Counted from the stretch's first letter, positions 1 through 21,969 are shown. The stretch is 64,000 bases of DNA from Prorocentrum cordatum (GCA_963575745.1 CAUYUJ010000001.1:2294001-2358000); one strand, 5' to 3'. The notes: generated by a model from the sequence alone, not told the origin. Program-made: numbers and translations.

Positions 1-2
1 AT

Positions 3-125
3 GTTTTTCCCAACCATCCTGTGGTGTTGGGTCCTCGTTTTGAAGAGACGGTGCCCCGCGTTCCTCCTTCCTTCCTCCCGCTGCCCCCTCCCTCCCCCTT
101 GCCTCTGCCCTCCGCATGTCTCTGT
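3..125. repeat. Hairpin leader (TTTTT-CCCAACC..GTTGGG-TCCTCGTTTTGAA) plus pyrimidine tract preceding a satellite array
   Basis: Closely similar sequence recurs at 39737-39782 and 41323-41365, each followed by a pyrimidine tract and a tandem array. Confidence 0.75.
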
Positions 126-127
126 TT

Positions 128-1045
128 CGGCACATCCCTCACGCGTTCCGTGGCCCCATAGGGAGCTCCACCGAAGGCCCCAGTGGCAGGGTCCGCATGG
201 CGGCCCCGCATTTTGGCGCACCCCTCACACGGTTCGTGGCCTCATAGGGAGCTCCACCGAAGGCCCCAATGGCAGGGTCCGCATGGCGGCCCCGCATGTT
301 GGCGCACCCCTCACACGGTTCGTGGCCCCGCAGGGAGCTCCACCGAAGGCCCCAGTAGCAGGGTCCGCATGGCGGCCCCGCATTTTGGCGCACCCTTCAC
401 ACGGTTCGTGGCCCCATAGGGAGCTCCACCGAAGGCCCCAATGGCAGGGTCCGCATGGCGGCCCCGCATGTTGGCTTGCCCCTCACACGGTTCGCGGCCC
501 CATAGGGAGCTCCACCGAAGGCCCCAGTGGCAGGGTCCGCATGGCGGCCCCGCATTGGGGCGCACCCCTCACACGGTTCGTGGCCCCATAGGGAGCTCCA
601 CCGAAGGCCCCAGTGGCAGGGTCCGCATGGCGGCCCCGCATTTTGGCGCACCCCTCACACGGTTCGTGGCCCCATAGGGAGCTCCACCGAAGGCCCCAGT
701 GGCAGGGTCCGCATGGCGGCCCCGCATTTTGGCGCACCCCTCACACGGTTCGTGGCCCCATAGGGAGCTCCACCGAAGGCCCCAGTGGCAGGGTCCGCAT
801 GGCGGCCCCGCCCCATGTTGGCGCACCCCTCACGCGGTTCGTGGCCCCATAGGGAGCTCCACCGAAGGCCCTAGTGGCAGGGTCCGCATGGCGGCCCCGC
901 CCCATTTTGGCGCACCCCTCACACGGCTCGTGGCCCCATAGGGAGCTCCACCGAATGCCCCAGTGGCAGGGTCCGCATGGCGGCCCCGCCCCATTTTGGC
1001 GCACCCCTCACACGGCTCGTGGCCCCATAGGGAGCTCCACCGAAG
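128..1045 (+). repeat. Tandem satellite, 86-bp unit (89 bp in the last copies), about 10.5 copies
   Basis: Unit GCACCCCTCACACGGTTCGTGGCCCCATAGGGAGCTCCACCGAAGGCCCCAGTGGCAGGGTCCGCATGGCGGCCCCGCATTTTGGC; spurious ORFs recur every 86 bp. Confidence 0.97.
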
Positions 1046-1694
1046 ATGATGCCCACAATTGCGGTATTAACAATTACTTATGGTTGGGTCTTTCGCCAGG
1101 CTAATTTGAAGTCGGAATGTTCGTGTGGGCACGCATTGCATAACAGCTAGTGAATACGGAAGGGATTATGGAATGTACAGTATTGGGAGTTGCACTTTCG
1201 CAGTATTCTCAAATGCGTTTGGGTACGTCGGGGCTCCCGATTCCTCACCTGCGGGACCCCATGTGCGCCCCGACCGATCAGACACTGCAGAATGACTTAC
1301 GATTGGTGATCTTCGTCCTCCTCCTCCCCCATCACCCCCTCCTCCTCCATACCTGCTATCCTTCTTTAGTCCTCCCTCCTCCGTCCCCCACCGTCCGTCA
1401 TCCAGGTATCAGTGGTACCAGTTACTAGGAGTTGGAGACATGTGGCGTGACCGGCCAGAGCGAGAGCTTGAATGACATGTGTCCTTCCAGCGTTCGGCCC
1501 GTGTATGTCCAGGCGCAGTGATCCTCCACATTTGTAGCCTCCGTACGCTCCTCATGTGAATCCAGCCGTTTGTGTGCTTCCAGCTTCCCGGTAGACGCCC
1601 CTTTGCATACGCAGGCATGGTTGGCACGATGCGCAGAATTATCCTGGCGAAGGACACAACCATAAGGTAGTTGTGAGTACCGCCGTTGCGAGAA

Positions 1695-3180
1695 CCGGCT
1701 TCGGTAGAGCTCCCTACGGAGCCACGGAACGCGTGAAGGGAGCGCACAAATGGGGCGGGGCCGCCATGCGGGCGCTGCCGTTGGGGCCGCCCGCAGGGGG
1801 CGCGGAGGTCAGACGAAACAGGTTACATGCTGATGTAACCCGTTGCGGCTGACAGGCATCAGGAGAAGTGGGAGAAGACATGTGGGCGCATCCACCGGAG
1901 CTTTACGTGGAGCTTCCGTTGTGGCCACGAAGCGCTGGAGGGGTGTGCCAACGTGGTGGGTGTGTGGCGGCATGCGAACGCACCCATTGGGGCCTCAGGT
2001 AGAGCTCCAAATGGGGCCACGAAACGTTTGAGGGGTTTGCCAAACTGAGGGGGGGGGGCGACATGCCAACGCAGCCGCTGAGGCCTTCGGTGGAGCCCCC
2101 TATGGGGCCACGAAGCTTGTGATGGGTGTGCCAAAGTGAAGGGGGGCGGCATACCAGCGCAGCCACTGAGTCCTTAGGTGTAGCTCCCTACTGGGCCACG
2201 AAACGTGTGAGGGGTGTGCCAAAATGACGAGGTGGCGGCATGCGAACGCAGCCACCTGGGAGCTTAGGTGGAGATCCTTTAAGGCCACGAAGCGTGTGAG
2301 GGGTATGCCAAAATTGAGGGGGGGGGGGGGGGGGCGAACGCAGCCACTGGGGCCTTCGGTGAGCTCCCTGTTGGGCCACGCACGAAACGCGTGCGGGGTG
2401 TGCCAAAGTGAGGGGGTTGGCGGCATGCGAACGCAGCCACTGGGGTCTTCGGTGGAGCTCGCTATAGGGCCACGAAACGTGTGAGAGGGGTGCCAAAGTG
2501 AGGGGGGTGGGGCGGCCTGCGAACGCAGCCACCTGGGCCTTCGGTGGAGTTTCCTATGGGGGGCACGAAACGCGTGAGGGGTGTGCCAAAGTGAGGGTGG
2601 TGGCGGCATGCGAACGCAGCCACTGGCGCCTTCGACTGAGCTCCCCATGGGGCCACGAAACGTCTCAGGGGTGTGCCAAAGGGTCGGGGGTGTCGGCATG
2701 CGAACGCACCCAATGGCGCCTTCGGCTGAGCTCCCTGTGGGGCCACAGAACGTGTGAGGAGTGTCCGATGGTGGTGGCGGCATGCGAACGCGGCCACTGA
2801 GGTCTTAGATGGAGCTCCCTATGGGGGCCTCGAAACGTGTGAGGGGTGCGCCAAACTGAGGGGGGTGGCGACATGCCAACGCAGCTTCTGGGGCCTTAGG
2901 TGGAGCTCCCAATGGGGCCACGAAACGTGTGAGGGGCGTGCCCAAGTGATGGGGGTGTCGGCATGCGAACGCAGCCACTGGCGCCTTAGGAAGAGCTCCC
3001 ACTGGAGCCAAGGAACGTGTGAAGGGTGTGCCACAGTGACGGGGTGGCGGCATACCAGCGCAGCCATTGAGTCCTTGGGTGTAGCTCCCTATGGGGCCAC
3101 GAAACATGTGAGGGGTGTGCCAAAGTGAAGGGCGTGGCTGCGGACCAACGCAGCCACTGGGGCCTTAGGTGGAGCTCCAG
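1695..3180 (-). repeat. Diverged, inverted array of the same satellite family (units about 88-90 bp)
   Basis: GAGCTCCCTATGGGGCCACGAAACGTGTGAGGGGTGTGCCAAA is essentially the reverse complement of the core of the 128-1045 unit and recurs about 15 times. Confidence 0.9.
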
Positions 3181-3276
3181 GAGGAGGAGGAAGAGGAGGA
3201 GGAGGAGGACCAGTGCAAACCCGGGATGCATTAACGATGTTGAAATACACCCTCCCTCCAAGATCACTCTTCACAG

Positions 3277-3386
3277 GCCCCTACAAGAGGTCATTTCCGC
3301 TGAAGGAATTGCCCCTTTGGGGGACAACCGTGAGAACATTTTGCAGCGTGCCCAAAACACCAGTTCCAGGACTTCAACGCCACGAG
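3277..3386 (+). CDS. Candidate upstream exon of the PLC-like phosphodiesterase gene (PYKRSFPLKELPLWGTTVRTFCSVPKTPVPGLQRHE)
   Basis: CTCTTCACAG acceptor, GAG|GC donor, phase 0 compatible with the exon at 5227; no homology evidence. Confidence 0.3.
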
Positions 3387-3559
3387 GCAACCTGACTGTT
3401 ACGTCGTGGTGCTCCTGAGTCGTGCCAGGACACCGCTCCTGGAACTTCAACACCGCGAAGCCACGTAACTGCTGCACCCTGGCAACCTTGAGCCGCTCCA
3501 AAACATCATGTCTGGTACGTTAACCATGAGGATAGATAAATCGGCTGCAAATGTCTAAA

Positions 3560-3945
3560 ACGAAGATGCGCGGCGCTAAGGCGAGAGCCACAGTTTGGAA
3601 AGGAACCGCCCTCAATCCGTGAAGCTCTTGCACCCTTTTAAAACGAATGTGCGCAGCGCTCTGGCGAGAGTCACATTTTCAAAACCACCCGTCTTCAATC
3701 CGTTAAATGTTTGTAATTTGCTTCTACGAACGTGCGCAGCGCCAGGGCGAGAGCTACAGTTTGAAAACCACAGGTCTTCAATCCGTGAAGCCCTTGCATT
3801 TGTTCCATGAATGTGCGCAGCGCTAAGGTGACAGCTACATTTTGAAAACCACCCGCCCTCAACGCGTGAAACCATTGCAAATGTGTAGGACGAATGCGCG
3901 CGGCGCCAAGGCGAAAGCCACATTTTGAAAAACACCCGCCCTCCA
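3560..3945. repeat. Degenerate tandem repeat, about 83-bp unit, about 5 copies
   Basis: Recurring GAATGTGCGCAGCGC..GGCGAGAGCTACAGTTTGAAAACCACCCG..TCAATCCGTGAA. Confidence 0.85.
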
Positions 3946-4593
3946 TATTTGAAGCTGTTGTCATTGTTTAAGCATCCGCATTATAAATAGTGAGGAAACT
4001 CTGGCGAATCGCCCGGCCGCCCTTTCGACCAGCCTCGGGGTGCGACAGACGAGTTATCTGTAAGGAAAAGAGATGGAGGGGGCTGCGCGCGATGGCCTCG
4101 CGGGGCTGTGGATGGAGGACGGGGAGGAGGAGGAGGAGGAGGAGCAGGAGGAGAAAGAGCAGGAGAAGAAGGAGGAGGAGAGCACTCGACACGCGGACCC
4201 TACTGAGTACCCCATACTGGGGCTTCATCCGCGGCCTCAGTGGGTATGTTTGCATGTTCTGGCAGACTTTTCCCGTGGACCGCACCCAACAGGGGGCTGC
4301 ACCCACGGCCTCGGTGGGTGTTTTTGTACGTGGTCCCCCCCGCCAATTTCGGCATACTCTTCACGCGGACCGCACCCCACAGGGGGCTCCACCTACGGCC
4401 TCGGCGGGTGTGTTCGCATGTGGTCCCCCCGCCCATGCCTGCCGCTGCCACCACGTCACCACCTGGGCGGTGCGCGGACGCGGCCCTTGTTTCAACCCAG
4501 CATGCCGTTCATATGTCTCGTGCCCCATGGGGAGGGCACAAGATACGGCCCAAACGAGGGCGCGCGCACATGCGGTCCATTCGCTGAATCGGG

Positions 4594-4597
4594 CACG

Positions 4598-4629
<32 letters not shown>

Positions 4630-4679
4630 CACGTTGAGCGCACGGACGAGACGGGCTCCAACCTCTTCGAGGTCGAAGG

Positions 4680-4734
<55 letters not shown>

Positions 4735-4846
4735 TCACTTTTTGGCGCCGGGGCCCCGCGCGTAGCGACGAGGCGTGGAAAGTCAAGAGGCTAGAGATCA
4801 TAATGGCGGACGCACGCGGCCGGGCCCTCAAAGGAAGCGGCAGGGA

Positions 4847-4886
<40 letters not shown>

Positions 4887-4915
4887 TCGCGCGTGCGCAC
4901 GCACGCGCACGCGCA
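4594..4915. repeat. Cluster of three (CA)n microsatellites
   Basis: Direct reading: (AC)n runs near 4598, 4685 and 4849. Confidence 0.95.
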
Positions 4916-5226
4916 AGCATCACACGTTTCGCGCCCCACAGGGAGCCCCAGCTATTACCTCAGCGGGGCTGCGCGCGGGGTCTCGCGCAATTCGGCGCAC
5001 CTCTTGCACGTTTCGTGCTAGAGACACGGATGTGGCGAGCAAGAGAAGTAGCACATCGAAAGATAAGAGGACCCGAGAGGGTGAGAAGAGAGGAGGGAGG
5101 AATCGGGAGGAAGGAGCAGTTCGTGTTTAATCTAAACCGAGAACCAAACACTGGATGGGTGAGGCAAAACTACCCTATGCCCCCCTAGTGTTGGTCTTCC
5201 ATGGCGCAGCACGTCCCCTCCTCCAG

Positions 5227-5949
5227 GGTTTGTCACAACTTGTGGGGCGAATCTACGATTTTAATGTGCCGTCAGGTGAGTGCGCTATTGACAAGATGCT
5301 GCATCGAGGCAAGCTTGTATTAGAGTCCACCATTTGCAGCACATCGCTTTTTATTTGTATAGTTTGTGGTTTGGGATTCTACTTTGCTCGTGCGTCGTTC
5401 ATCAGCGGCCACGACGAACGTGCAGTTATCGGGTTGATAAAGAAGGAGACCAAGTTCGCTTCAGATGAAGCGGCTCACGACGGTGAGCTCGCAAGAAAGG
5501 ACATGAAAGCATGCGAGAGGTTCGCCAGAAGTTGGAAAGCCATTCCAGTGTATCTTCTGTTGGCAGCTCTTGTAGCTTTATTTGTCGTGTGGGTGAGCAA
5601 CCCTTCGTCCGTAGAGGTTGCCGACAGTGTTGACGATGATGCGGACGGGATTGCGAAGAGGGAGTTCTCTTGGTGCTACGAGTCTAATTGTTGCAATGGC
5701 CTGTCGTCGCTATGTTCGCGTCGCTACGACCAGGTCGTTCACGCCACGAGTCATAATTCTTACAGCAGCACTGCAGACGGGTTCAACTTGGCGAACCACG
5801 AACAGTCGTTCAAGGACTCGCTCGAGGCAGGCGTTCGCGGTCTCAACTTCGATTTGGTAACAGAAGTCACTGGCGTAACAAAATGGTGCCATAAGTTTTG
5901 CACGCTGGGCCAGATGGATCTTGCCGTGGCGTTTACAATTAGTCAAGAG
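5227..5949 (+). CDS. PLC-like phosphodiesterase (PI-PLC X domain-containing protein), exon with TM segments and N-terminal part of the catalytic domain
   Basis: CNGLSSLCSRRYDQVVHATSHNSYS...NHEQSFKDSLEAGVRGLNFD...WCH matches the CNG..LC...Y..V....HNS...L..GVR...D...CH signature of this family; CTCCAG acceptor at 5226, GAG|GC donor at 5950. Confidence 0.88.
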
Positions 5950-6089
5950 GCTTGCGCGATTCCGCTGGACCCAAGGCGAGGAGAGGAGATGTGCGCCCTC
6001 CGGGTTCGTATGTAGTGTTTGCCATTTCCCGTCGTGCTGCTTGCGTGTAGTTGTCACCGGTTCGTCCTCTTTCCTCCTCGTCTGTTGCG

Positions 6090-6482
6090 GGGCGTTTTGG
6101 GGGCCTCTCGGAGGGCTGGGGGATGGCCTCCTGGAGTTGTTGTTCAAGGCTCCCGAATCTGCGTGGGCCCTCTGGGGGCTTTTTGGGGGCCTCTTGGGGG
6201 TAAGTTGGGGGTCTTGGGGGCCATCTCGTGGGGGAGGCCTGCCAGGGCCCCTGTCTCTTGGGGCCTGCCTGAGGCGTTTATGCAGTCTCGGGGGCACCTC
6301 GGGCCGCCTTGGGGCCCTCTTGGGCCGCCTCCGGGCCCTCTGGGTGGCCTCTTGGGCCGTCTTGGGCCAGTCTGCGATGTCTTCGTCGTCCTCCTCCTCC
6401 TTCTGCTCCTCCTCCTCCTCCTCCTCCTCCTCCTCCTCCTCCTCCTGCTCCTCCTTCTCCTCCTCCTCCTTCTCCTCCTCCT
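6090..6482. repeat. Interspersed GGGCCTCTTGGG-rich repeat with (CCT)n tract, left part, split by the LINE insertion
   Basis: Same motif family resumes at 11522-11900 and occurs uninterrupted at 18110-18790. Confidence 0.7.
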
Positions 6483-6519
6483 TCCGTAGCCATTTTGGCT
6501 CAAGCCATTTTGGCTCAAG
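6483..6519 (+). other. Dinoflagellate spliced leader (22 nt) followed by a 15-nt relict SL
   Basis: TCCGTAGCCATTTTGGCTCAAG (6483-6504) matches DCCGTAGCCATTTTGGCTCAAG exactly; CCATTTTGGCTCAAG (6505-6519) is the canonical truncated relict. Confidence 0.97.
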
Positions 6520-6674
6520 TTGCCATATCCTCAAGGCAGCTGGCCAGGTCAGAGCAGGGCTGCTCCCGACTCGGCCCGCGACACAGGGGTCGGGGGTTGA
6601 CCCTTTTCGCGCACTGAGGCATTTTGCCACCCAAATTCTCTCTCCAGATTCGCGTCTCGCTTCCTGGCAGTGCA

Positions 6675-7760
6675 ATGGCCGCTGCCGAGGTATCCAATGC
6701 TCAGTTGCTCCAGGTTCTCGAAGGAATGAACGGCGACATGAACGCCATGAGGGACGACATCAAAGATGTCAAAGAGCGTCTCGCCGTTGCAGAAGGACTT
6801 GAGGAGAAGATTTCCGATCTCGAGCTCGCCATGGAGGGCAAGTTCGAAGAGGCCAAGAATGCTCACCAAGCCCTCGTTCTCGACATGGACCTACGAGTTT
6901 CTCGACTCGAGCATGCCCATCAAGAAGCCGCCACCAACGCCGCCTTCTTTGGCACCGAGGACGGCAACCCCACCGCCAAAAACGCAGGGCTCGAGATTCA
7001 ACGTCAGATGAATGAGAAAATGGCCAGACTCGAAGCGTCTCTTGCCGAACTCCAACGAGCTCCGTCCGATGCAGGCTCCGCTTCAACTCGGCCGCCATCC
7101 AAGTCTCGTCGCTTGGGAAGGGGCACCAGCGCTGGCTCCAGCGCTTCCGAGATCCCCGTGATCGACTTCGCCAACGACGAGCACAACCAGATCGACCCGA
7201 CCAGACGGTGGATCAGCGGTTTTCCTCGCCCAGTCACCGAGCCGTATAGGCGCACAGTCTTCAACCAGATGAAAAGCCGACTTCTTGCCGCCATCAGCGA
7301 AGGGATGACAGGACATTTCCACAAAGTATCACAAGCGTTCGCCGTCACCTTCAATTTCGAGCAGAAGGCCCGCGACTTCCACGACTGGTTCCTCGCGAAT
7401 CCCGTGACGTGGCAGGACTATCGCAACACCTCCCTTCATCCACTGCGCTGCCGCAGAGATATGCCGCTGCAGGCCCGCCAGAAGAACCGCGTCCTGAGCG
7501 CCCTCTGGCCGCTCGTCCGCAAGCACCTCGAGAACGCAGGCAAGTGGAGCCCGTCAATCAAGATCGGCACCAACCCGTTCAAAAGCGTGTTCAGTATCAC
7601 CACCGAGAATGACCATTGGGAGATCTTCAAGCTGTCCGACGCCCCTGGAGGCATGTACGAGCTGAAGCCGATTAGCGACCAGCTCTCCGAGTGGAGCATC
7701 ACCGAGACGACCGCCAACTGGATGGTCGAGCAGGCCCAGGTGTCCGTCCAGCAGTACTGA
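6675..7760 (+). CDS. LINE ORF1 protein (N-terminal coiled coil), intact, 361 aa
   Basis: Heptad-rich LLQVLEGMNGDMNAMRDDIKDVKERLAVAEGLEEKISDLE; lies directly upstream of the APE-RT ORF. Confidence 0.8.
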   Translation: MAAAEVSNAQLLQVLEGMNGDMNAMRDDIKDVKERLAVAEGLEEKISDLELAMEGKFEEAKNAHQALVLDMDLRVSRLEHAHQEAATNAAFFGTEDGNPTAKNAGLEIQRQMNEKMARLEASLAELQRAPSDAGSASTRPPSKSRRLGRGTSAGSSASEIPVIDFANDEHNQIDPTRRWISGFPRPVTEPYRRTVFNQMKSRLLAAISEGMTGHFHKVSQAFAVTFNFEQKARDFHDWFLANPVTWQDYRNTSLHPLRCRRDMPLQARQKNRVLSALWPLVRKHLENAGKWSPSIKIGTNPFKSVFSITTENDHWEIFKLSDAPGGMYELKPISDQLSEWSITETTANWMVEQAQVSVQQY

Positions 7761-7899
7761 AGTGACGCCAGCCTAGTATCGTGTGCAAATTTTCTGTATT
7801 TTCTCGCTTCTTCGCTGCCTCTGTCGCCCGAGTCTTCTGCTCATTGTTCGCCTTCTCTGTCGAATGCTGTTTTTGGAGCCCAGCCGCCTTCGCCTGAGA

Positions 7900-10800
7900 A
7901 CCCGGCCAGTTCTCGCCTCTCTTTTCCGCCGTCCCTGGCCAACGGTCGAGGTATTCGGATTGCTACATGGAACTGTCACACCCTGTTCGGCGCGGTCTCT
8001 GGGGACCACGACACTCAGGTCAAGACCTTCGATCGACTTACTAACCGAACTAGAGCAAACAATATCATTTGCTTACAAGAAACGCACGGCCATGAAGGGG
8101 ATCGCGAGTCGTTGCGTACCGAGTTCCCTGGCTATGAATATTTATGTACGTTCTGCCCCGACAGTCACGCTGGCGGGAACGCGATCATGCTTGCTCGCTC
8201 TCTTCTCGTTCTGCTTCCTCAACATCAACATAATGTGATTATTCCTGGGCGTCTCCACGCCGTCACCATCCAGTCCGACTCTTTCTCGCTCACCATCTTG
8301 AACCTCCATCTCGACCCGAGATGCCGCCACAGAGAGAAAATAGGGGTCCTTCGCCTGTGCGCCGATTTTTTTGCACACTGCCCAGGGCCTCTTCTTCTTT
8401 GTTTGAGACTTCAACTTTTGCGAGCTGGGCGAGGGTACCCAGCGAGTAGACGGCTCTGTGCAGATCAACAGCCACGACTCCCTCGCCCACAAGTTCTGGT
8501 CGCTATTGCCTAACGTTATGGAATGCTACCAAGAGAATCCGACCCACCACACCACTCGGAATGGGAATGTGATTAGTGCATCCAGGATCGACCGTATTTA
8601 TACCAATATGTTCACTGGGGATCTCTTGGATTTGAAACCGACCCCTGGGACCTCCTGGAATATTGGCAAAGCCGGCCTCCCGAGTGACCACGCCCCGGCG
8701 CACCTGCATCTGAACGGAGGCGGAGACAACCGCGCTCGGACCGTCGCCTCGTGGGTCTCTCGTCACCCTCTGTATCCGATCCTGCTCGAAAAGCTGATCA
8801 ACGAGCACGGGGTATGCGAAGATAATCCGCCGCTGATGGTTGAAGAGCTCACGCGCCTTATGCACGAAGCAGGCCGTCTCGTCCAGCATCGCCTTTCCGA
8901 GCTTCCGCCCAGCTCCGCCGAGCAGCATTTGCAGTGGCTGTTCGCGGTGAATCGCGCCATGCGGAGCCACAAGATAAGCACGCTGAAGAAGGCTGTCAAG
9001 GCCATCCCCGCGTTGCTCAACTTTCTCGACCCTGACAGTGGCACGCGGCACAACCAGTCAGCCTTTCAAGAGTATATGGCCAAGATTGCTGCCGCTCGGT
9101 ACCAAAAAGAATATGAGGAAATCATCGGACATACCACGGAATCCCCCCAGTTTCGCGAGCACCGAGCTGCGCGTCTTCAGAGATTGGCATCGGCCAGGTC
9201 TCCGAAGAATCGGAGAATATTCCTCGCGGGCATCACGGGTGCCGAGGGGAACGCTTTTCCGACTGCTGAGGCCGGGGCCCATGCTCTCGCCGCTCACTGG
9301 AGCCAAGTTCACGCCTCTGTTTCATCTCAGATTGCCGCGAGGGACCAGCTGGAGGAACATATTCAAAAAGTGAAGGGGGGCTCAGATTTGGAGTCTCTCT
9401 TAAGAACAGTTTTGCGGAGTTTTGGATCGGCTTCGCGATTCCGCCCCTGGCCCTGACGGGCTATGTTACCCTGCCTGGCCCAATGGGAACTTATTTGCTA
9501 GGTGGGCCGCCTACGCCATGTACCAGCACATCATGGATTTCGGCCAGGTTTCGGACGATTTCTACCTCAGCAACTCGGTCTTCCTCCCCAAAAGGTTCCC
9601 TGGACCGCGACGGATTCGAGCTCTGGAGGGCCCCTGAAATGACCCGTCCCATCTCCCTCTCCAACTCGATCAACAAAATTGTCGCTGTCGCGATCAACTG
9701 CCGCCTGAAAGAGGTTTGCGTGGACACCACTATTGGGACCCAAAGGGACTTCGTCAAACACCGTAACATGCTTGACACTCTGATTGAGTTCGAGACGCAC
9801 ATGGTCCTAGGAGCAGGTCTTTTGCGGCGACAGACTGCAGGCGCTATCCTGCTGGACATTAAGGCCGCCTTCCCCAGTTTATGCCATGATTGGATATTTT
9901 TCGTATTCGAGAAAATGAACTTTCCCGATTTGTACTGAATGCAATAAGGACGCTCTATGCCAAGGTTACCACCACCATTCTCCTGGGCGGGGTGTCTCAC
10001 TGCTCTTGTCGGATCCTCCGCGGGATAAAGCAAGGATGTCCACTCTCGGGAAGCGTATTCGCCTTGGGGTTCGATCCGATTTTACGATTGCTCTGTCTTC
10101 GGCTGCCCCGACCTGTCCATTTGCACGGTGCCTTCGCCGACGACGTTGCCTCCGCCGCCTTTGACATCTACATGGCCGTGCCCATTTTCATGAAAGTTAT
10201 GATGCTTGCGGGGCTCGCCGCTGGCCTCATCCCGAACCCCCAAAAAAAACGGTGATATTATTTTACCGCGACTTTAACACAGAGGAGGAGGAGAGGAAGT
10301 TCCAACGGCAGGGGATCAGAGTTCGGAGCTTCGGGATGTCCAAGTGTGCCAAGTATATTGGTGTGATGTGCGGGATCAGGGCCCAAGAGGAATATCGGGC
10401 CGCCCCGCTGGTCAAGTTTCGCGACCGCTGCCGCTTCATTAAGTCTTTGAAGTTAGGCCTGTCGATGTCTCTCGTGGCGTACAACCAGATTGCAGTCACT
10501 GTGCCCATGTACATCGCCCAGTTCTTTCCGCCCACGGCCGATTGCAGCTGGCAGGTGCATCTCGGGCTGCAGTCGTTGACATGTGCTCCTCGGCATGCCC
10601 TGTCTGATCACATGCTGGTGGGAATGAAGTCTCTCGGGGGAAAACTATCTCGGGCCAGGTCTCTCACGCGCGAAGCTCGGGCCGCTGCATATCGTGCTTC
10701 CCACGCCTCGTCGGTCTTTTTCGCCTGCATCGAGAAAATTGAGGACGCGTTCGATGACCCCGAATGCCATCTGGACGCTCATCTTCATCCCGCTTATACC

Positions 10801-11479
10801 AAGTTTTTCGTTTTAATGATGGCCCAGAACTATCGTGAGTTATCCAGAATCCCGTCCGCCCCCCACCGTCTTCGAGCGCGGGCTTCAGAAGAAAATGACC
10901 AAGCTTGTGCTCTCACATCAACCCCGGGTTCCGTTTCCAGAGCTCATCCTGAGGCGTCTCCAGTATTGGGCCTCGAGGTTTCCTGAAGTTGGCCAAGTTG
11001 GGGCTCCTGAAGCCCAACTGTGTTTCTCTCGGCAAAAAGTGGTCGGCCAGCATATTGCTCCCTTCGTTCAACTCAGTCTGCTGCGCGGTATATGTAACGC
11101 TTGGAATACCTCACGGAGATACCGCCAGGCCACTCTAGGATGCAGGTTCGGATGCCCATGTATTGCTGGTGACCAGATCGTGCATTACCTTGTCTGTCCA
11201 GCTCTTCTCGGAGTGATGCGTGCCAATCTGCCTAGGCTCCCACCGCGGTGGGGGGCGGAGGTGTTTGCTGGGCTCCTTCTTTTTTCTATGCCTCTCTCGT
11301 GCGATGAAATCGTCTCCATTGCCATAGCACACGACGTTCTTTTTAACACGTTTAACCAGCTCAGGTCCGAGGGGGCCCAAAGCACATCGCGAGCCATTCG
11401 GCTTGCTGCAGGCCGGTTCCGCCTTATGTGCCGACGGGGTGCCAGGGCGCGGTCTCTGGCGCGGCGATTGGGCATCTAG
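7900..11479 (+). pseudogene. LINE ORF2 (APE endonuclease, reverse transcriptase, CCHC), multiply frameshifted
   Basis: IATWNC, ICLQETHG, SRIDRIY, PSDH (APE); SAPGPDG, RPISLSN, LLDIKAAFPSL, GIKQGCPLSG, AFADDV (RT); CRFGC..DQIVHYLVC; spread over several frames. Confidence 0.92.
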
Positions 11480-11521
11480 CGATGTGGGCGCCTCGGATGA
11501 CCTGCCAGGTGGGATCGGGTA

Positions 11522-11900
11522 TCCTTCTCCTCCTCCTCCTCCCCTTCCTCCTCCTCTTCCCTCTCCTCCTCAACATCTTCCTCCTCGTCCTCTTCCTCCT
11601 CCTCCTGGGGGCACTCTCGTGCCATCTTGGGCTTGCAGACGCCCGAAAGGCGAGAGCGCGAGCATCAGTCAAAAACCCATCGGACATCAATGATTGATGC
11701 CTCCTGATGCCCTCCTGAGGGTCCTCTTGGGGCCTCTTTGAGCGCATTGGGGTCGTCTTGGGCCGTTCTGAGGCCATCTTAGGTGCTCTTGAGGCCTCCC
11801 CGGCGTGTCGGAGCCCTTCTGGAGCAGTCTCAGAAAGCATTTGGGGGCATCCTGGCGGCCGCGGAGCGTGGGTTTTAGGCTCCGAGGGCCCAGGATGTGC
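11522..11900. repeat. Right part of the GGGCCTCTTGGG-rich interspersed repeat interrupted by the LINE
   Basis: (CCT)n tract resumes, followed by the same motif family as 6090-6390. Confidence 0.65.
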
Positions 11901-12035
11901 GTTGATAAGCTCGCGGCCATCTCACCACCCTGTGCGTGCGACGCGGTTCTGGACCTCAGGGGACCGGGTAAAGGGAGAGGGGAGGCAGCCAATCTTCCCA
12001 CACGCCTTTTCAATCCCGACAAGCAGGGTCGACAG

Positions 12036-12185
12036 GTCAACGCGTTCTTGGGGCAGAGACCGAACGAAGTGATCACCCTCATCTTCGAACAGCTCATATC
12101 AGTGGGTCGAACAAAAGCCGAGCAGTTTCAACACGTGCAGGATGCGCTGGTCTCAAGTGGTTTGGTGAACAAGTTGCATACGCAG
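12036..12185 (+). CDS. PLC-like phosphodiesterase exon (VNAFLGQRPNEVITLIFEQ...)
   Basis: FL...PNEV.T..FE family motif; CAG acceptor at 12035, CAG|GC donor; in phase with the exon ending at 5949. Confidence 0.88.
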
Positions 12186-12284
12186 GCCTCTTCCTGCTTC
12201 CTTCGTATCCTCAGTTATCTTTCCTCCCACTCATCCTCGATCTTCATCCCTCATCACTTCTCTTTCTTCCGCCTTCTCCTTCAG

Positions 12285-12471
12285 GCCCACGGACATCCAT
12301 GGCCAACGCTTGATCAAATGAAGGGGAAAGTCGTGATCTTCAACTACTTGCATGACCCTTTGCACGAGTCGAATCCAGTGAGTTCAGGCATCGACGATGA
12401 CAGCCGACGGTGGAACCACCACGCATTCTCGTTCATGGTTTCAAACAACTTCCAATATCCAGCTGCGTGTG
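12285..12471 (+). CDS. PLC-like phosphodiesterase exon (AHGHPWPTLDQMKGKVVIF...NNFQYPAAC)
   Basis: WPTL..M....V.F family motif; polypyrimidine tract + CAG acceptor; G|GCAAGT donor, phase 1. Confidence 0.85.
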
Positions 12472-13945
12472 GCAAGTCCGGCCACTGTGCCAGCCCAGCA
12501 TTTTGGATGGCGATTTGTCGGGGGGGCGCACAGGAGACTGTAACGAGGGGCACGTTTTGCCCCCAGGCTTAATAGAGCCGCTAATATGTGTCATTATAGT
12601 TCGCGTCGTTTCGTTATTTATGTTTTCGTCCTCAGCGTCGGCCTCATCCACTCATAATGTTGAAGTGCATCCCTGTTCCTCATTCGTCACTTCCTCGTCT
12701 TCTTATTGTTATTAGTTGTTCTGTTATTGTTATTCGTTGTTTGCTCTCCCTTTTGCCTCATCCCCTGTTCGGCGACGATTGTAGCAACGACCAGATGGTT
12801 GTCACATGTGGCCGTCGGCCAGCCTGAGACTATCTTGAGTTACTGCGCGGCCGCTTTGAGGCGGTGTAGGAAGATGATGGGAATGATGATCGTGATGACG
12901 ATGAGGATGAGCATGTTGAGGTGGAGGATAGTACATTACTTAGTGCGAGGGGCTTAATTTGCAAGCGGTGATTTCTCGAGCCATAGAACAGTTCGAAGAA
13001 GCACCCGCTTTCGAACCAATGATAAACTATATGCGGGGAGGGTTCACACCCGAGGCATTTAATTTCTATTATTGGAGGGGCTCTTCTGTGGTTGCCATTG
13101 CCAGATTGGGCTCTTCACTGGGAATTCTGACGACCGCAGCGCCGAGTTCGTACATCTGTGTAGGCAGGGATTGCATGCGGGACCGCAAACACGAATGCCG
13201 TGCTTCTTGATGCGCGTGGCCAAGTCCTGCACGCGGGACCGTTGGCACAAATCTGCATGAGATTCGTGTCGGCAGGGCCTGCGCGCGAGACCGTTGACAC
13301 AAGTCTACATTGGGGCGTTTACGAATCTCGATTGCGCATGGCCTGCTTGCGGGACGCCGTTTTCAGATTCCGCATGCGTCTCTTAGGCAGGGCTTGTTCG
13401 CAGGACCCCCGAAGAGACGCACGGGGGCGAGAAAGACCCGGTTGATGTTGGAGCAAATTCTGGGCGCTGCGTCGACATGGGCCATGCGCGAAGTCTAGGA
13501 GCGTTGCGATGCTCACTCAACGCGGATCGTTTGTGGCTTTGTGGTTTACGACGGCTATAGCCCTGGGGGCGCCGACCGGATGCATTTGCCGGCAGGTGCC
13601 GTTGACGAGAGCTCTCGGACACGTGCTGCTAGCAGCGAGGCCAGGGCACGGCCTGCCCAGTGCCGTCCCGAGCCGTCCGGGGTACCTCTCGGGTCTGTCC
13701 TCCGAGCGTCGACGCTGCGAGCGTCGCCCAGACGGCCGTCACATGCGACACGCCGGGGAGCCGTCGGGCCGCCCAGGGAGCCTCGGCAGGGACGGCGACG
13801 CACGCAGGGAAGCATGCTGAGGGGGGAGGCCTCCCCAGAGGGTAGCAGGGACTCTGCCGGGCAGCCCTGGGCGTGCTACCACGCCTCGGCGTGCCGGGGG
13901 GCACTGCGGCGGACGCTGGCAGGAGCGATCTCCTCGGGGCGTCAG

Positions 13946-14137
13946 GGTGCACCCGCTACAATGGTCACCCAGACAGCGCGCTGCTCCTCGTGAACCACTT
14001 CATCACGGCGCCCGCGGCGAGTGCCGCCTGGGCGTCTGCGGTCAATTACTATTCGGACTTGAAGGGGCACGCGGAGAAGTGCCAGAACGAATACAGCAAG
14101 GTACCGAATTTCTTGTTGGTTGACTTTTGGTCCATAG
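13946..14137 (+). CDS. PLC-like phosphodiesterase exon (CTRYNG...LLLVNHF...KVPNFLLVDFWSIG)
   Basis: L.L.NHF...N...L..H...C...PNF..VDF family motif; TCAG acceptor, AG|GC donor; phases match both neighbours. Confidence 0.9.
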
Positions 14138-15904
14138 GCGATTCGCTCCCAATGCTGCGGCGTATCTTGCATGATCCGCTTATCCGCGCTGCTCCTCCTC
14201 GTTTGTCTTTATCTGGCCTTGCACGGCTATGGCCCCCCCAAAGCCCATCCAAATCCAAACAGTATTGTTCACAGTAGTTGGTATAGTAGCATCGATCGCA
14301 GCAATCCCACCACACAGAGATCACGGCCGCGTGGCCCACTGTTGCTCGCAGTAGAGCCGCTATACTGTTCAGAGTGGTGTTGTTCGCAGCGGGCTGGCTC
14401 ATAAGAGTGCAGCTCGCGCTCACTTGGCTCGCGGCGGCCCTCTTCATGTGGATGTGTTGGCGCATGCGCAGAGACACATGATAGGCAGGGCTCTGGCCGA
14501 TAAGGCGTTCGGCGTTCGGGATAGATTAAGCGTGCTCACCCCCACTCTTTGCCAATGGTCATGGCGCTCGTGAACATTTGTCCTTCAACCCTGAGGCATC
14601 AAAAACGTTCTGACGTCGTGGCGCTTGCACGCCTCAACGGCAACGGTGCACCACGAGACCACAGGGGCACCATGGCGGAGGTATTTGTTCTGCACGTATC
14701 GTGGTTCCCGCCCAAGCGCATCCAGAAGCGAGCTGGCGTGAGAAGAGGGAGAGAGCAATCAACCTAAGCAGCCCTCCAACAATTGCCAACGTGGGACGCT
14801 CAGGGAACATCTTAGAGGCTCCTTGGATCCATCTTCTTGAACTCTTGGGTATTGTTGCTCACGCAGCTTGCCGAACAGGGTGCTGTTGAGGTAGAAGCTA
14901 GGTCCGGCCGAGGGAGACCGAAGAAGAGACATCCTCAAACAGGTTGTTTCGCTTGAGACATCCTCGCGAAACTCGTTTCCGAGATGGCCGAAATCAGGCG
15001 TCTCGTCTAAGACATCCTCGCAATTCTGGTCTTCGAGATGCCGCGCGAGAAGGGGGCCAGCGCGTTTCGCCCGAGATATCATAGGAATTCTGATGTCCGA
15101 GATGCCGCGCGCGTGAGGTGATCTTCGCGTGTCGCCTGAAACATCCTCACAACTCTGGGCTCCGAGGTGCTGCGCGCGAGGTGGTCCGGCGCGTTTCGTT
15201 TGAGACATCCTCGCAGTTGTGGGCCCTAAGGTGCTGCGCGCGAGATGGTCTGGCCCGTTTTGCCTGAGACATCCTCGCAGTTGTGGGCGCTAGGATGCTG
15301 CGCGCGAGGTGCTTCATTCTGCTTCGGTGGACGCATCTTCGCGGATCTCGGTTCCGAGATGTCACGCGCGAGGTGGTCCAGCCCGTTTCGCTTGAGACAT
15401 ATTCGCAACTTTGGGCTCCAAGATGTCGCGCGCGGGGTGGTCTGGGGCGTTTCGCCTGAGACATCCTTGCAGTTATTGGCTCCAAGATACCGCGCGAGAG
15501 GTAGCCTGGCCCGTGTCGCCTGCGACATCGTCGCAACTCTGGGCTCTGAGAAGGTGTGCGCGAGGTGGCCCGATGCGTTTCGGCCGAGACATCCTCGCAA
15601 CTAGGGGCTCCGACATGCTGCGCGCGAGGTGGTCCGGCGCGTTTCGCGCGAGACAGCCTAGAACTTCTGGGCTCCGAGAGGGAGGAGGGAGGAGGGGTCA
15701 GGCCCAAGCGAACCTTTTGATTACGTTTCTGTTGTCCGATTATGCTTCTGGGAGGTGTCTGGGCGCCGCCTGATCCTCGCAACTCTGAGCTCCAAGACGT
15801 CGCGCGCGAGGTGGTCCTGTCCGTTCCGTCTGAGATATTCTCGCAGCTGGTCTCTGCGACGCCGCGCGCGTGGTGGTCTGGCCCGTTTCGCCAGAGACGT
15901 CCTA

Positions 15905-16092
15905 CGGTAGGTTTGCGTCGTGTCGACCAGCGGCGACCCCAGCGCGGGCGTTCAAGGTTGAACGCCGCCGGCGACCCAGAATCGATCGATGTTGAACGAT
16001 CGGACGTTGCGGAGACGGCCGATCGTTCAAGGTTGAACGATCCCCGCGGTGTCAGGAACCAACGCCGGGGTCGACACGACACGAACCTACCG
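15905..16092. mobile_element. 188-bp MITE with about 24-bp TIRs and TA target duplication (Tc1/mariner type)
   Basis: TA|CGGTAGGTTTGCGTCGTGTCGACC ... GGTCGACACGACACGAACCTACCG|TA; removal restores a satellite unit. Confidence 0.88.
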
Positions 16093-16175
16093 TAGCAGTT
16101 CTGGGCCCCGACGTGCTGCGAGCGAGGTCCAGCGCGTGTCGCCTGGTACAGCCTCGAACGACTGGGCTCCGAGAG

Positions 16176-16339
16176 CAAGGGCTCCCACGAGGGCGCGAAG
16201 TTATTCGCGCTTCGCGCTTCGCGGTCCTCGTTCCTCCTCCTCGTCCTCCTTTTCTCCCTTTGGGGGGGCGGCGCGAGGGCGCGAAGTTATTCGCGCTTCG
16301 CGCTTCGCGCAGCGCGAAGCGCGAAGTTGGGAGCCCTTG
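16176..16339. mobile_element. 164-bp MITE with perfect 12-bp TIRs and 5-bp TSD
   Basis: GAGAG|CAAGGGCTCCCA ... TGGGAGCCCTTG|GAGAG; empty-site version GGCTCCGAGAGGGAGG near 15670. Confidence 0.85.
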
Positions 16340-17134
16340 GAGAGGGAGGAAGGAGCAGGGAGGAGGGGTCAGACCCAAGCGAACGATGCGATGCCATTTC
16401 TGTTGTCGAATTATGCTCTGGGAGGTGTCTGGGCGCTGCCTGATCCTGGCAACTCGGAGCTCCCAGATGTCGCGCGGGAGGTAATCCAGCCCGTTTGCTT
16501 CGTCTGAGACATGTTCGCAACTCTGGGCTGCGAGATGCTGCGCGAGAGGTGGTCCGGCCTGCTTCGCACGAGACAGCATCGCAAGTCGGAGCTCCGAGAT
16601 GCTGCGCGCGAGGTGGCCTGGGCCCGTTTCGCCTGAGACACCCCCCAGATCTCGGGCCCCGAGAGGGAGGGGGGAGGAGGAGGGGGGGGAGGAGGGGGGA
16701 GGGGAGGGAGGGGGAGGGGAGGGAGAGGGGGGGGAGGGGGAGGAGAGGGGGGGGAGGAGGAGGGGAGAGGGAGGGGGGGGGAGGAGGGGGGAGGGGTCAG
16801 ATACAAACGAACCACTTGATTCCTCTTGTGTTGTCGGCTTGTGCTTTGGGAGGGGCCTGGGCGCCCCTGGCCCGGCGGAGGAGGCAGCTAGCGCTGACGC
16901 GCGGCCGCGATGCACTGGTCAGCTCCAAAGAGCCACGCTTGAGCAAGTCGTGGAGGTGCTTCGAGCGAGAGCGCGGTGAGCATGGAGGGAGCAGGATGGG
17001 GCAGGAGACAGGGAGGATGAAGCAGACAGTGAACGATGGATACGGGACCAGGCCCAAACGATTTGTTTGCGGGCATCCATCATCCATGGGGAGGACGCCC
17101 CTTGGAAGCGGAATCGAGAGTGCGAAGGCATCCT

Positions 17135-17840
17135 AGCATGGCGGAGGAAGCGGAGACGAGGATAGACGAGGGGGAAAAGGAGAAGGAAGAGAAGGGCAAT
17201 GATTTAAAATGACGGGGAGGACGAGGAGAAGGGGGAGGAGGAGGTATGCGAGGACGAGGAGGAGGAGAGGAAGAGGGGGAGCAGTGAGAGGAGGATGAGG
17301 ATGAGGAGGAGCAGGAGCAGGAGAAGCAAGAGGACCACTGCGAAGAGGAGGAGGAGGAGGAGGAGGAGGACGCGGAACACGAGAAGGAGTACGAGGCATA
17401 CAAGGAGGAACACGGCGAGCAGATGGAGGAGCAGGAGGACGAGCAGATGGAGTGCGATGAGGAGGTAGAGGATTAGGAGGAGAATAAGGATGACGAGGGA
17501 AACGCCGAGGAGGAATAGCACCAGGAGAATGAGGAGGATTCGTCTGAGGAGGGGGGCGAAGGAGGAGTGAGATGAGGAGGTATAGAAGGAGGAGGAGGAG
17601 GAAGACCAGGAGGATCAGGATGAGGAGGACGACGATGATGAGGAGGAGGAGGATGAGGAGGAGCGGGAGAAAGGGAGGAGGTGGATGATGAGGAGGAGGT
17701 GTAGTGGAATAGTGGAGGGCGAGAAGCATAATGACGTAGATGCGGAGGAGGACGACGACGACGATGACGAAAAGCTCGACGACGACGCCGAGAGCGCAAG
17801 CGGATCAGGAGCAGGAGGACGCGCGAACACAGAGGAGCCA
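17135..17840. repeat. Purine-rich (GAG)n low-complexity tract
   Basis: Direct reading. Confidence 0.9.
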
Positions 17841-18109
17841 CCTTGACTCAACAATTGCTGGTTTCGGATGCTGGACCCTGGCTAAATTTGGAAGACAATG
17901 TGTTGTCTTTGGGGCCTTTTTGGGACCATGCTGGAGACCATCGGCCGAAGAAGAGATTAGCGAAGGGCCCAACTGTGTGTAGCGCATGGGGGCGGTCTTC
18001 TTTTACATGTACGTATGCACGCATGTTTCTATACGCTTGTATGCAAATATCACATGGCCGTCGGCCCCATCCCGCCACAGTGCCCAGGTAGTGGATGTAA
18101 GCCCTATTG

Positions 18110-18790
18110 GATGTTCGTTGGAGGCCTCTCGGGGGCCTCTTGGAGGCAGTATGGAAGCCTCATAAGGGGGGCGTTTCGGAGCCTTCTTGAGCCTTTGGGG
18201 GTGCCTCTTGGGGGCCTCTTGGGGCTTTTGGGGGGCCCCTTGTGGGCCTGTTGAGGCCTCCTGGGCGCCTCTTGGGGCCTCCTGGACGCTTCTTGGAGCG
18301 GAAGGCTTGATTTTCGGTTCGCGTTCCCTCTCTTGGGTCCCTTTTGGGGCCGTCTTGGGCGCCTCTTGGGCCGTCTTGGGGCGCTCTGAGGCCGTTTCGG
18401 GCCTCTCTTGGAGGCCTCTTGGGCAGTTTTGGGATGGTCTTGGGGGCCTCTTGGTTGCTTGGAGCGTAGGAAAGCCGAAAAGGCAAACCCATGGAAATCA
18501 GTGATTTGTGCCTCCTCGGGGCTCTCTTGGGAGGCCTCTGGAATGCCTCTTGGGGCGTTTTGGGGGCCTCTTGGGCCGTTGCGAGGCCGTCTTGGACGTC
18601 TTGGGCCGATCTTTGTGCGTCTCGGGGCCCCTCTGGACCGTCTTGGAGGCCGCTCGGGGCCCCATTGTGCCCGTCTTGGGGCCCTCTCGTGCCCGAAGAC
18701 GTCGTGCGACAAGATGCCGGCTACCCACAGGGGGCACGCGGGCAGCCCCAAGAGGTTTCTGGATTCGGGGTCCGGGCCTTTGAAAGACTG
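18110..18790. repeat. GGGCCTCTTGGG-rich interspersed repeat
   Basis: Same motif family as 6090-6390 and 11600-11900. Confidence 0.75.
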
Positions 18791-18831
18791 TTCAGTACTG
18801 CCGAATCGCTCGCTGAATCGATTCTGACTCT

Positions 18832-19057
18832 CAGAGCCCCGAATCATCAGGGGTAACTCGGGTCAGGGATAACTCGGGTTCGTTTTTCGGGAATCCAAAC
18901 CCGAGTTACCCCGGACCCGAGTTACCCCGGATAACTCGGGCGTCCAGAGCCCCGAATCATCAGGGGTAACTCGGGTCAGGGGTAACTCGGGTTTCTTTTT
19001 CGGGAGTCCAAACCCGAGTTACCCCGGACCCGAGTTACCCCGGATAACTCGGGCGCC
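18832..19057. repeat. Tandem duplication of a 113-bp internally palindromic unit
   Basis: CAGAGCCCCGAATCATC at 18832 and 18945; each unit has two GGG(G/A)TAACTCGGGT facing two ACCCGAGTTACCCC. Confidence 0.93.
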
Positions 19058-19129
19058 CAAGACTCGCGCTGGCTTCGGGTCCCCACTCGCCTTCGCCCCC
19101 AGCATTGCCCCTCGTGGAAACTGCGACAG

Positions 19130-19317
19130 GCGATGTCATCGCGGTCGCACTGCAGCTGAACGAGGACATCAATCCCAGCAGCTATCCCGCGATACCAGCC
19201 TCTTCGTATATTACTGGCGACGGCGGTGCCGGGGCCATTGAGGTGGACAATGCTGGGATCACGAGGTACGTGGGATACGTGCCGGTGAACCTCAACGGAG
19301 GTGGATTTATTTGCCAG
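19130..19317 (+). CDS. PLC-like phosphodiesterase exon (GDVIAVALQLNEDIN...GGGFICQ)
   Basis: Completes the family end motif VDFW.IGDV......LN; ACAG acceptor phase 1; CAG|GC candidate donor (otherwise reads on to the stop at 19365). Confidence 0.8.
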
Positions 19318-21874: not shown

Positions 21875-21969
21875 GCCACCGCCTAGATGCAGGGGGGGCG
21901 ACTCTAATCACACGTTTCGCACATTTCCCACGGCCTGTCGGCCTTATTTCCGTCGTTCCCTCCGCGCTC

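Follow-up and report, generated by a model that had tools for sequence, protein, structure and literature searches.

In this work, we analysed a stretch of 64,000 nucleotides from the dinoflagellate Prorocentrum cordatum (GCA_963575745.1, CAUYUJ010000001.1:2294001-2358000; hereafter the window, with positions counted from its first letter). At 6483-11522 it contains a long interspersed nuclear element (LINE) whose first bases are a perfect dinoflagellate spliced leader (DinoSL; SL, spliced leader), directly followed by a 15-nt relict of an older one. The element belongs to a multi-copy family, lies in the sense orientation in an intron of a predicted gene, and is full-length but, as judged by its reading frames, dead. 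The explanation that accounts best for the whole, to which we give a probability of roughly 70%, is that it is a dead copy of an L1-like LINE made from an SL-capped RNA template, the 5' end of which came from the processing of a longer transcript. The features of the element and of its target site are as follows.

6389-6482, no strand: (TCC)31 microsatellite, upstream half of the presumed target site (Tandem Repeats Finder, TRF: period 3, 31.3 copies, 90% matches)
6468-6482, plus strand: left copy of the candidate target-site duplication (TSD), CCTTCTCCTCCTCCT (identical 15-mer at 11523-11537)
6483-6504, plus strand: DinoSL, 22 nt, with T at the variable position D (sequence; shuffles)
6505-6519, plus strand: relict leader, 15 nt (sequence; TRF)
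6520-6535, plus strand: possible third, decayed relict, TTG followed by CCATATCCTCAAG (fuzzy match, 4 errors)
6536-6674, plus strand: 5' untranslated region (UTR), 139 nt (sequence)
6675-7760, plus strand: open reading frame (ORF) 1, 361 aa, intact; predicted long N-terminal helices, RRM-like and C-terminal domain, similar to L1 ORF1p (AlphaFold2, Foldseek)
7761-11479, plus strand: ORF2 region, with six frameshifts (frame analysis, Pfam, PDB sequence matches)
about 7962-8700, plus strand: endonuclease part of ORF2 (Pfam Exo_endo_phos)
about 9645-10159, plus strand: Pfam-matched part of the ORF2 reverse transcriptase (RT) (RVT_1)
10820-11476, plus strand: Cys-rich C-terminal part of ORF2
11480-11522, plus strand: short 3' UTR ending in ...GGGTAT (sequence)
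11522-11606, no strand: (TCC)n microsatellite, downstream half of the presumed target site (TRF: period 3, 28.3 copies, 74% matches)
11523-11537, plus strand: right copy of the candidate TSD (identical to 6468-6482)

The sequence TCCGTAGCCATTTTGGCTCAAG at 6483-6504 matches the 22-nt DinoSL exactly (D = T, 0 mismatches), and CCATTTTGGCTCAAG at 6505-6519, an exact 15-nt relict corresponding to SL positions 8-22, follows without a gap. The 5' boundary of the element thus has the form known from DinoSL-tagged retrocopies, with a full genomic DinoSL and a relict from SL position 8 directly behind it. Neither pattern has a further site in the whole window, and two matches were found in none of 100 dinucleotide-preserving shuffles, for the SL pattern and for the relict pattern alike. 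TRF describes the leader block as a repeat of period 15 (2.1 copies, 100% matches). A third unit, CCATATCCTCAAG at 6523-6535, is preceded by TTG, lies 3 nt behind the second unit and differs from the relict by 4 errors. A fuzzy relict pattern allowing 4 errors gave 113 matches in 600 windows of 260 nt drawn at random from the metagenome loci described below, so a match at that exact spot is unlikely to arise by chance (by our own estimate, of the order of 0.01), and we regard it as a possible, weak third relict. An Rfam scan of 6200-7000 (E<=1) returned only a chance match to a long non-coding RNA (E=0.25), a result that leaves room for a divergent ribozyme.

At both ends the element meets (TCC)n, at 6389-6482 and at 11522-11606 according to TRF. 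The direct repeat CCTTCTCCTCCTCCT, of 15 nt and possibly 16 nt, abuts the SL on one side and the 3' end on the other, which delimits the element as 6483-11522; and because this TSD brackets precisely that interval, the SL is part of the insert. As to the chance level, a 15-mer was shared in 23 of 6230 position pairs within the two (TCC)n tracts. The 3' end has no poly(A), and the trailing (TCC)n could be target, tail or both. Judged by these flanks, the insertion target is a microsatellite: (TCC)n is best read as the place of integration, and the approximately 100 nt of pyrimidines before the AG of the SL as incidental in this copy. An earlier note on this DNA, made from the sequence alone, had described the perfect 22-nt DinoSL and the 15-nt relict behind it, and the exact matches together with the TSD around 6483-11522 bear this out. 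It had also proposed a third decayed relict, of which the 4-error match right behind the second unit stands, as a weak candidate, and a long (CCT)n tract upstream, which is there and is likewise found downstream, the element ending at 11522.

ORF1 starts 139 nt after position 6535, in accordance with the intact ORF1 about 140 bp behind the leaders that had been noted before. It matched no Pfam family, a word-based search for homologs of near length found none, and 37 pattern matches in JGI metagenome contigs yielded 0 confirmed cases. A search of 1.84 billion representative proteins found 141 relatives at E<=1e-3. Three are near-identical fragments; the others share about 16-52% identity with it, in most cases about 20-35%, are mostly shorter than about 400 aa and are often fragmentary. 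The AlphaFold2 model of ORF1, built on 43 aligned sequences, has a mean pLDDT of 86.5, with helices at 3-92 and 99-128, a disordered linker and an alpha/beta domain at 177-360 that is mostly above pLDDT 94. Foldseek against the PDB placed chains of the human LINE-1 ORF1p trimer at ranks 1-9 (E 6e-4 to 4e-3), with RRMs ranking after them and with low TM-scores (0.2-0.39). ORF1 is accordingly modelled as a protein with coiled coil, RRM and C-terminal domain.

In ORF2, Exo_endo_phos was matched at E=2e-4 and 21.6 bits (cutoff 24.5) over the N-terminal half of the domain only, the domain being interrupted by a frameshift near 8366; the corresponding piece of a related metagenome locus (L059), 30% identical to that of the window, reaches 42 bits in Pfam. 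A frameshift divides the RVT_1 match into two neighbouring pieces (E 2.3e-6, 27.9 bits, and E 1.9e-4, 21.6 bits), each alone below the cutoff of 29.6 bits, and the relative L027 scores 47.6 bits. Sequence matches of the RT in the PDB are weak and fall on R2 and LINE-1 ORF2p (E 0.006-0.06), and the RT piece had no match among longer proteins, which is weak evidence by the search's own rating. The element is a non-long-terminal-repeat retrotransposon of L1-like architecture, with an RT, an N-terminal APE-type endonuclease and a TSD. ORF2 lacks an ATG of its own and continues in the frame of ORF1 behind a single TGA (7758-7760), an arrangement of the two frames that suggests stop-codon readthrough or reinitiation. 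A single in-frame stop between ORF1 and ORF2 was also observed elsewhere (in oriented coordinates, TGA at 1531-1533 of L059 and at 1468-1470 of L038, and TAG at 1186-1188 of L040), and in the LINE loci L016, L055, L065 and L054 ORF2 is in a different, overlapping frame.

The earlier note called the LINE full-length. Its ORF2 is not intact: six frame changes are needed to read through it, near 8366, 9373, 9590, 9928, 10245 and 10859. We compared the element with contigs of run X1, from 'organism A', and of the metagenomes X2 and X3, with the repeats at both junctions masked in the alignments. At >=80% likeness, 2750, 553 and 308 contigs, respectively, were placed on 6200-11800, the repetitive flanks included, and run X4 placed no contigs on the element. 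The pieces of the element listed from these contigs are about 83-96% alike, and the element is a member of a multi-copy family. Within the 64-kb window, blastn and tblastn detected no second copy, and the family-specific junction had 0 matches in viral contigs. At five of the six sites (8366, 9373, 9590, 9928 and 10859) other copies have a single-base state that restores the frame, and the direction of their differences fits the frame change at each of them. The restoring state makes up 62, 33, 23, 47 and 86% of the summed contig depth of X1 at these sites, in that order, and in X2 it is present in all covering contigs at 9590, 9928 and 10859. These states indicate that the family once had one continuous ORF2. 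Some of the indels of the window, all of which lie at or near homopolymers, may be assembly errors; yet several of them are common to other contigs. The decayed third unit varies as well, with 1-nt deletions at 6530/6531 in six contigs of X1, one of X2 and one of X3. The leader itself is reached by record 9 of X2, which is 411 nt long, starts at 6492 and is collinear with the element to 6892, with 35 differences and one gap of 1 nt over 401 nt; in this copy, about 91% alike and thus about 9% diverged, the 5' UTR is likewise preceded by two leader units in tandem.

The surrounding gene was found by a search with the open frame upstream of the element, which led to P0144, a protein of 505 aa recorded at NCBI as 'unnamed protein product [Prorocentrum cordatum]', which matches the queried part with 100% identity. 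Two of its segments map to the window:

5275-5946, plus strand: upstream exon of the host gene model, P0144 aa 225-448 (exact 12-mer peptide tiling; tblastn 99.6% over 225 aa)
12038-12187, plus strand: downstream exon of the host gene model, P0144 aa 448-497 (peptide tiling)

Since both segments flank the element on the plus strand, the LINE is placed in sense within an intron of about 6.1 kb of the predicted gene, as had been stated before. The intron borders of the P0144 model are not GT/GC/GA…AG and look non-canonical. Furthermore, its last mapped exon (12038-12187) reads …RVLGAETERSDHP…, and another frame (11793-12569, plus strand) looks more protein-like (…NAFLGQRPNEVITLIFEQLISVG…); the public model, itself a prediction, may be wrong at the downstream exon or in the wrong frame there. 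Pfam gave no domain on the 103 flanking ORFs of >=100 aa (1-6400 and 11600-26000), nor, under lenient settings, on the two host-exon ORFs. Outside the microsatellite, TRF detected a satellite GGGCC..TCTTGG on both sides, a degenerate 10-11-nt repeat (GGGGCCTCTTG / GGGCCGTCTT) at 6100-6373 and 11690-11800. In X1, the summed contig depth is about 21,000 over this satellite and about 70-200 over the element; the satellite explains both the very high contig depth and some spurious joints. Contig joints linking 6322-6342 to 11747-11756 were considered as an empty site and rejected, their sides being <=25 nt and lying within the satellite of both flanks.

A scan of metagenome contigs for an exact 36-mer, composed of the SL without its D (21 nt) and the relict (15 nt), gave at least 119 loci, 80 of them with flanks. 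From the matches listed we took the 60 loci with >=900 nt downstream as a sample for content. Eight of these 60 encode, behind the SL, an endonuclease and/or an RT recognised by Pfam (L019, L023, L027, L040, L044, L046, L055 and L059, of which L044 and L046 are one sequence), five more are related to those eight by BLASTP at E<=5e-9 (L014, L016, L036, L054 and L065), and two others match a hidden Markov model of the ORF1 family (L038 at 2e-7, L011 at 4e-4). LINEs of other families thus start at the SL in 13-15 of the 60 listed loci, about a quarter, and cellular Pfam domains appear in only 6 of them (kelch twice, tubulin, radical SAM, Mg chelatase and PLD), the remaining loci being unassigned. 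The LINE of L023 ends in an A10 tail. Pieces of the window element match L059 (ORF1 26%, endonuclease 30%) and L027 (endonuclease and RT about 24-31%). These families are distant, at about 23-31% amino acid identity, and each has a perfect SL and relict before a different 5' UTR, which argues for repeated acquisition and not for a single inheritance. The SL-headed start appears, from these sequences, to be general across several dinoflagellate LINE families.

Published work treats an SL with a relict that begins directly behind the AG of CCGTAG as the signature of repeated splicing at an integrated SL (PMC7245778, PMC12014239, PMC6050394). The signature in the window implies at least two rounds of trans-splicing and retrotransposition in this lineage, which we consider well supported; the earlier note had reached the same number, and the second copy in X2 and the other LINE families agree with it. 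For a relict to be kept, the pre-mRNA of the parent would have held its own integrated SL from position 6-7 or earlier together with an upstream 3' splice-site sequence, so that transcription would have begun in the flank. L059 has, 69 nt downstream of its SL and separated from it by a spacer of non-SL sequence, a second full but decayed SL; an earlier round would leave such a trace if it had used an AG in the flank, ahead of the former 5' end. Besides, L053 and L097, which are 99.3% alike but lie behind different upstream flanks, are distinguished by a single relict adjacent to the SL, the difference predicted for one extra round.

Taken together, these results point towards the following course of events. 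Transcription of a parent copy that already began with an integrated SL, of which the relict would be the trace, would have started ahead of the 5' end of that copy, with read-through from a host gene as the probable source. Trans-splicing at the AG inside the old SL (CCGTAG|CC) would then have provided an RNA template with DinoSL at its 5' end, so that in this lineage, and in several other LINE families of dinoflagellates, the 5' end of the transposition intermediate would be made and capped by the processing of a longer transcript and not by precise initiation at an internal promoter, which may be dispensable. Target-primed reverse transcription into (TCC)n, in the intron of a gene on the same strand, would have copied the template to the end of the RNA, making the leader the first 22 nt of the DNA copy, and would have left the duplication of 15-16 nt. 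The start in the flank that a relict calls for is the strongest reason to infer that such LINEs could be expressed from external transcription, with the 5' end made and capped by trans-splicing, and they may be independent of an internal promoter. It is tempting to speculate further, although we hold this broader view only tentatively and as somewhat doubtful, that L1-like LINEs of dinoflagellates are promoter-less parasites of host transcription units, living in introns and on read-through, for which the integrated SL would be a portable 3' splice site cut by the trans-spliceosome, freeing and capping a full-length RNA in each generation; landing in microsatellites, they might also be the engine of the thousands of DinoSL-tagged retrogenes.

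Several points weigh against this explanation. All the runs compared consist of contigs, which cannot show RNA, transcription starts or strands, and trans-splicing and read-through are therefore inferred. The window copy itself cannot be autonomous because its ORF2 is broken at six places, and for orientation and target preference the family offers visible flanks in one copy only. The perfect SL and relict, 37 nt in all, give no date, since their unchanged survival at 5-15% divergence has by our own estimate a probability of about 0.15. The requirement for a perfect 36-mer makes the metagenome sample favour young, high-copy sequences, and the sample says nothing on LINEs devoid of relicts. Furthermore, TTT(G) in an integrated DinoSL has been proposed as a promoter (PMC6050394), which would be an internal promoter of a kind. 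Between the LINEs L023 and L036, which are 99.7% alike over 3046 nt, the difference is one internal 16-nt unit (relict plus G), and slippage or parallel histories account for it better than one extra round does. The arrays are also short, with 1-3 relicts; as a LINE lineage must in our judgement have gone through many more cycles, most rounds would have to use a downstream AG, bypass the first AG or be reset by truncation; the AG that ends each unit, for example, would if used keep or lower the number of relicts. The idea of the earlier note that relicts act as a generation counter consequently survives at best as a lower bound on the number of rounds: L053 and L097 differ as it predicts, and the internal unit of L023/L036 and the short arrays do not fit it.

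Some of the same data could be read as a block of SL and relict that was captured once or twice and has since been inherited as a fixed 5' UTR module, serving as the promoter of the element through a T-rich core and a TBP-like factor. A promoter role of DinoSL relicts has indeed been published (PMC5585692, PMC6050394), the 91%-alike copy in X2 has the same two units, so that the pair may predate the split of the copies, and a decayed third unit with 1-nt indels in other copies indicates inheritance as ordinary 5' UTR. We nevertheless hold this to be unlikely. In our judgement, a start at or downstream of the SL would lose the old SL instead of keeping its positions 8-22, and each relict would for that reason record a transcript begun upstream. 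Moreover, the module would have to explain perfect SL and relict pairs before different 5' UTRs in unrelated LINE families, as well as the one-relict difference between L053 and L097 at their different sites.

Replication slippage or unequal exchange in a 15/16-nt array, after one single event of trans-splicing and retroposition, would produce extra units that count nothing. The leader block does read as a 15-nt tandem repeat in TRF, and L023 and L036 differ by an internal unit and not by the one adjacent to the SL; yet the register in which the relict starts, exactly after the AG of CCGTAG, is that predicted by splicing, whereas duplication of a whole SL would repeat TCCGTAG. The same 15-nt register recurs in at least 119 loci (here by construction of the search) and is the published norm (PMC7245778, PMC12014239). 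With L053 and L097 lying at different insertion sites in addition, we regard slippage as quite improbable. A last possibility is that the SL is foreign to the LINE, owing to the landing of a 5'-complete LINE beside the 5' end of an older SL-tagged retrocopy, to a template switch of the RT onto another SL-bearing RNA or to a chimeric assembly. Template switching does occur at the 5' ends of other LINEs. It is scarcely credible here, given that the 15-nt TSD lies directly outside both the SL and the 3' end, that (TCC)n continues on both sides, that the units are followed by this 5' UTR in an independent metagenome contig as well (X2 record 9), and that 13-15 other LINE loci among the matches listed start at the SL.

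As regards the microsatellite, the earlier note had supposed that (CCT)n sites supply a pyrimidine tract for trans-splicing. In the window copy, the approximately 100 nt of C/T before the AG of the SL would make a strong 3' splice site. This does not extend to the other loci: the pyrimidine fraction of the 24 nt upstream of the SL averages 0.50, and only 2 of the 97 listed loci that have >=24 nt upstream reach >=80%, so the proposal fails as a general rule. What recurs is the simple repeat itself. A near-perfect repeat lies directly upstream of the SL in 15 of 97 listed loci against 0 of 550 internal control windows and, in a fairer control, within 60 nt upstream in 19 of 62 listed loci against 3 of 84 at other contig ends; among LINE-like loci with enough flank, the figure is 5 of 12. 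The types are ATC, AT, GT, ACAT, ACAG, CTGT, AATGT and TC. The same microsatellite on both sides was seen in 1 of the 30 loci examined (L022, with (TA)n around a retrocopy of about 1.8 kb), the contigs ending too early elsewhere. This variety of repeats points to a choice of target by the integration machinery, or to annealing of repeat-bearing RNA 3' ends, and not to a splicing signal, and it suggests that SL-tagged retrocopies tend to integrate into simple repeats.

Recycled processed cDNAs of dinoflagellates were reportedly described by Slamovits and Keeling in 2008. Accounts of DinoSL-tagged retrogenes have been given by Song et al. 2017 (PMC5585692) and Stephens et al. 2020 (PMC7245778), and these cases share with the window element a full genomic DinoSL, relicts that begin after the AG of CCGTAG and the interpretation as repeated trans-splicing, reverse transcription and integration. 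The difference is that the RNA recycled here would be the retrotransposon's own mRNA and not that of a cellular gene mobilised in trans; also, unlike recycled cellular cDNAs, the window element has a TSD in a microsatellite and no poly(A). The mechanism would thus be dinoflagellate cDNA recycling applied to the RNA of the retrotransposon itself. The Gene Ontology term 'RNA-dependent DNA replication' is enriched among relict-bearing genes (Song et al. 2017, PMC5585692), which implies that RT-bearing cases have been counted before. The portions of the literature consulted contained no account of LINEs whose 5' termini consist of SL and relicts, nor of the microsatellite flanks, and the supplementary gene lists of PMC5585692 and PMC12014239 may hold RT-bearing 'retrogenes'.

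With human LINE-1 the element shares an ORF1p composed of coiled coil, RRM and C-terminal domain, for which L1 ORF1p ranks first among the structural matches, an ORF2 with N-terminal APE endonuclease and RT, a TSD and many diverged or dead copies. It differs in the lack of poly(A), in an ORF2 placed behind an in-frame TGA without ATG, and in its 5' end, which is a host spliced leader where LINE-1 has a promoter-bearing 5' UTR. LINEs are also joined physically to spliced-leader sequence in SLACS, CZAR, CRE and NeSL-1, which insert into SL RNA genes by means of a restriction-like endonuclease, whereas the window element has an APE-type endonuclease, (TCC)n flanks and a relict instead of SL-gene intron behind the SL. 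An SL-gene-specific LINE was considered and ruled out on these grounds, namely the (TCC)n flanks, the Exo_endo_phos-type endonuclease and the relict after the SL. LINEs of the Tx1/R1 group target microsatellites such as (TC)n and (TAA)n, and resemble the present case by insertion inside a simple repeat that is found on both sides; here, however, the type of repeat varies in the metagenome sample, and the window family is known from one flanked copy.

LINEs must either carry a promoter or remake their 5' end in some other way, and the known answers are internal promoters and 5' ribozymes. R2, RTE elements and the L1Tc element of Trypanosoma cruzi have a 5' ribozyme like that of hepatitis delta virus, by which R2 and L1Tc are released from co-transcripts. 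L1Tc transcripts are described as unspliced and driven by the Pr77 promoter (PMC3185411, PMC1874656). Common to these and to the present proposal is that the 5' end of the element RNA comes from the processing of a longer transcript, and the host of L1Tc also has universal SL trans-splicing; the difference is that no ribozyme family was found at the 5' end of the window element, for which processing and cap would come from the host trans-spliceosome. If true, a third answer would be trans-splicing by the host SL machinery at the leader that the element itself has integrated. The finding is also relevant to the machinery that makes dinoflagellate retrogenes, which is called unknown in PMC5585692 and for which Ty1/copia is favoured in PMC6050394: L1-like LINEs have the same signature of SL and relict, and the same habit of microsatellite flanks, as SL-tagged loci.

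Some minor observations concern the SL-headed loci in general. Five loci (L012, L015, L049, L050 and L062) were considered as LINEs and rejected, since their links of 15-57 aa to L023/L036 are translated SL/relict repeats. Three of them (L012, L015 and L062) have ORFs of 490-710 aa shortly after the SL and relict, without any Pfam domain; L012 and L062 are 36% identical over 402 aa and L012 and L015 28% over 159 aa, and this ORF family could be another mobile element. Among 118 listed loci, the base at SL position 1, before CCGTAG, is T in 86, C in 14, A in 11 and G in 7, of which C falls outside the published D (T, A or G). Finally, an extra G stands before many of the relicts just behind the SL units (…CTCAAG G CCATTTT…), which gives 16-nt units (L023, L036, L003, L034, L007, L013 and L069); these may be relicts of a 23-nt leader whose donor site lies one base further on.

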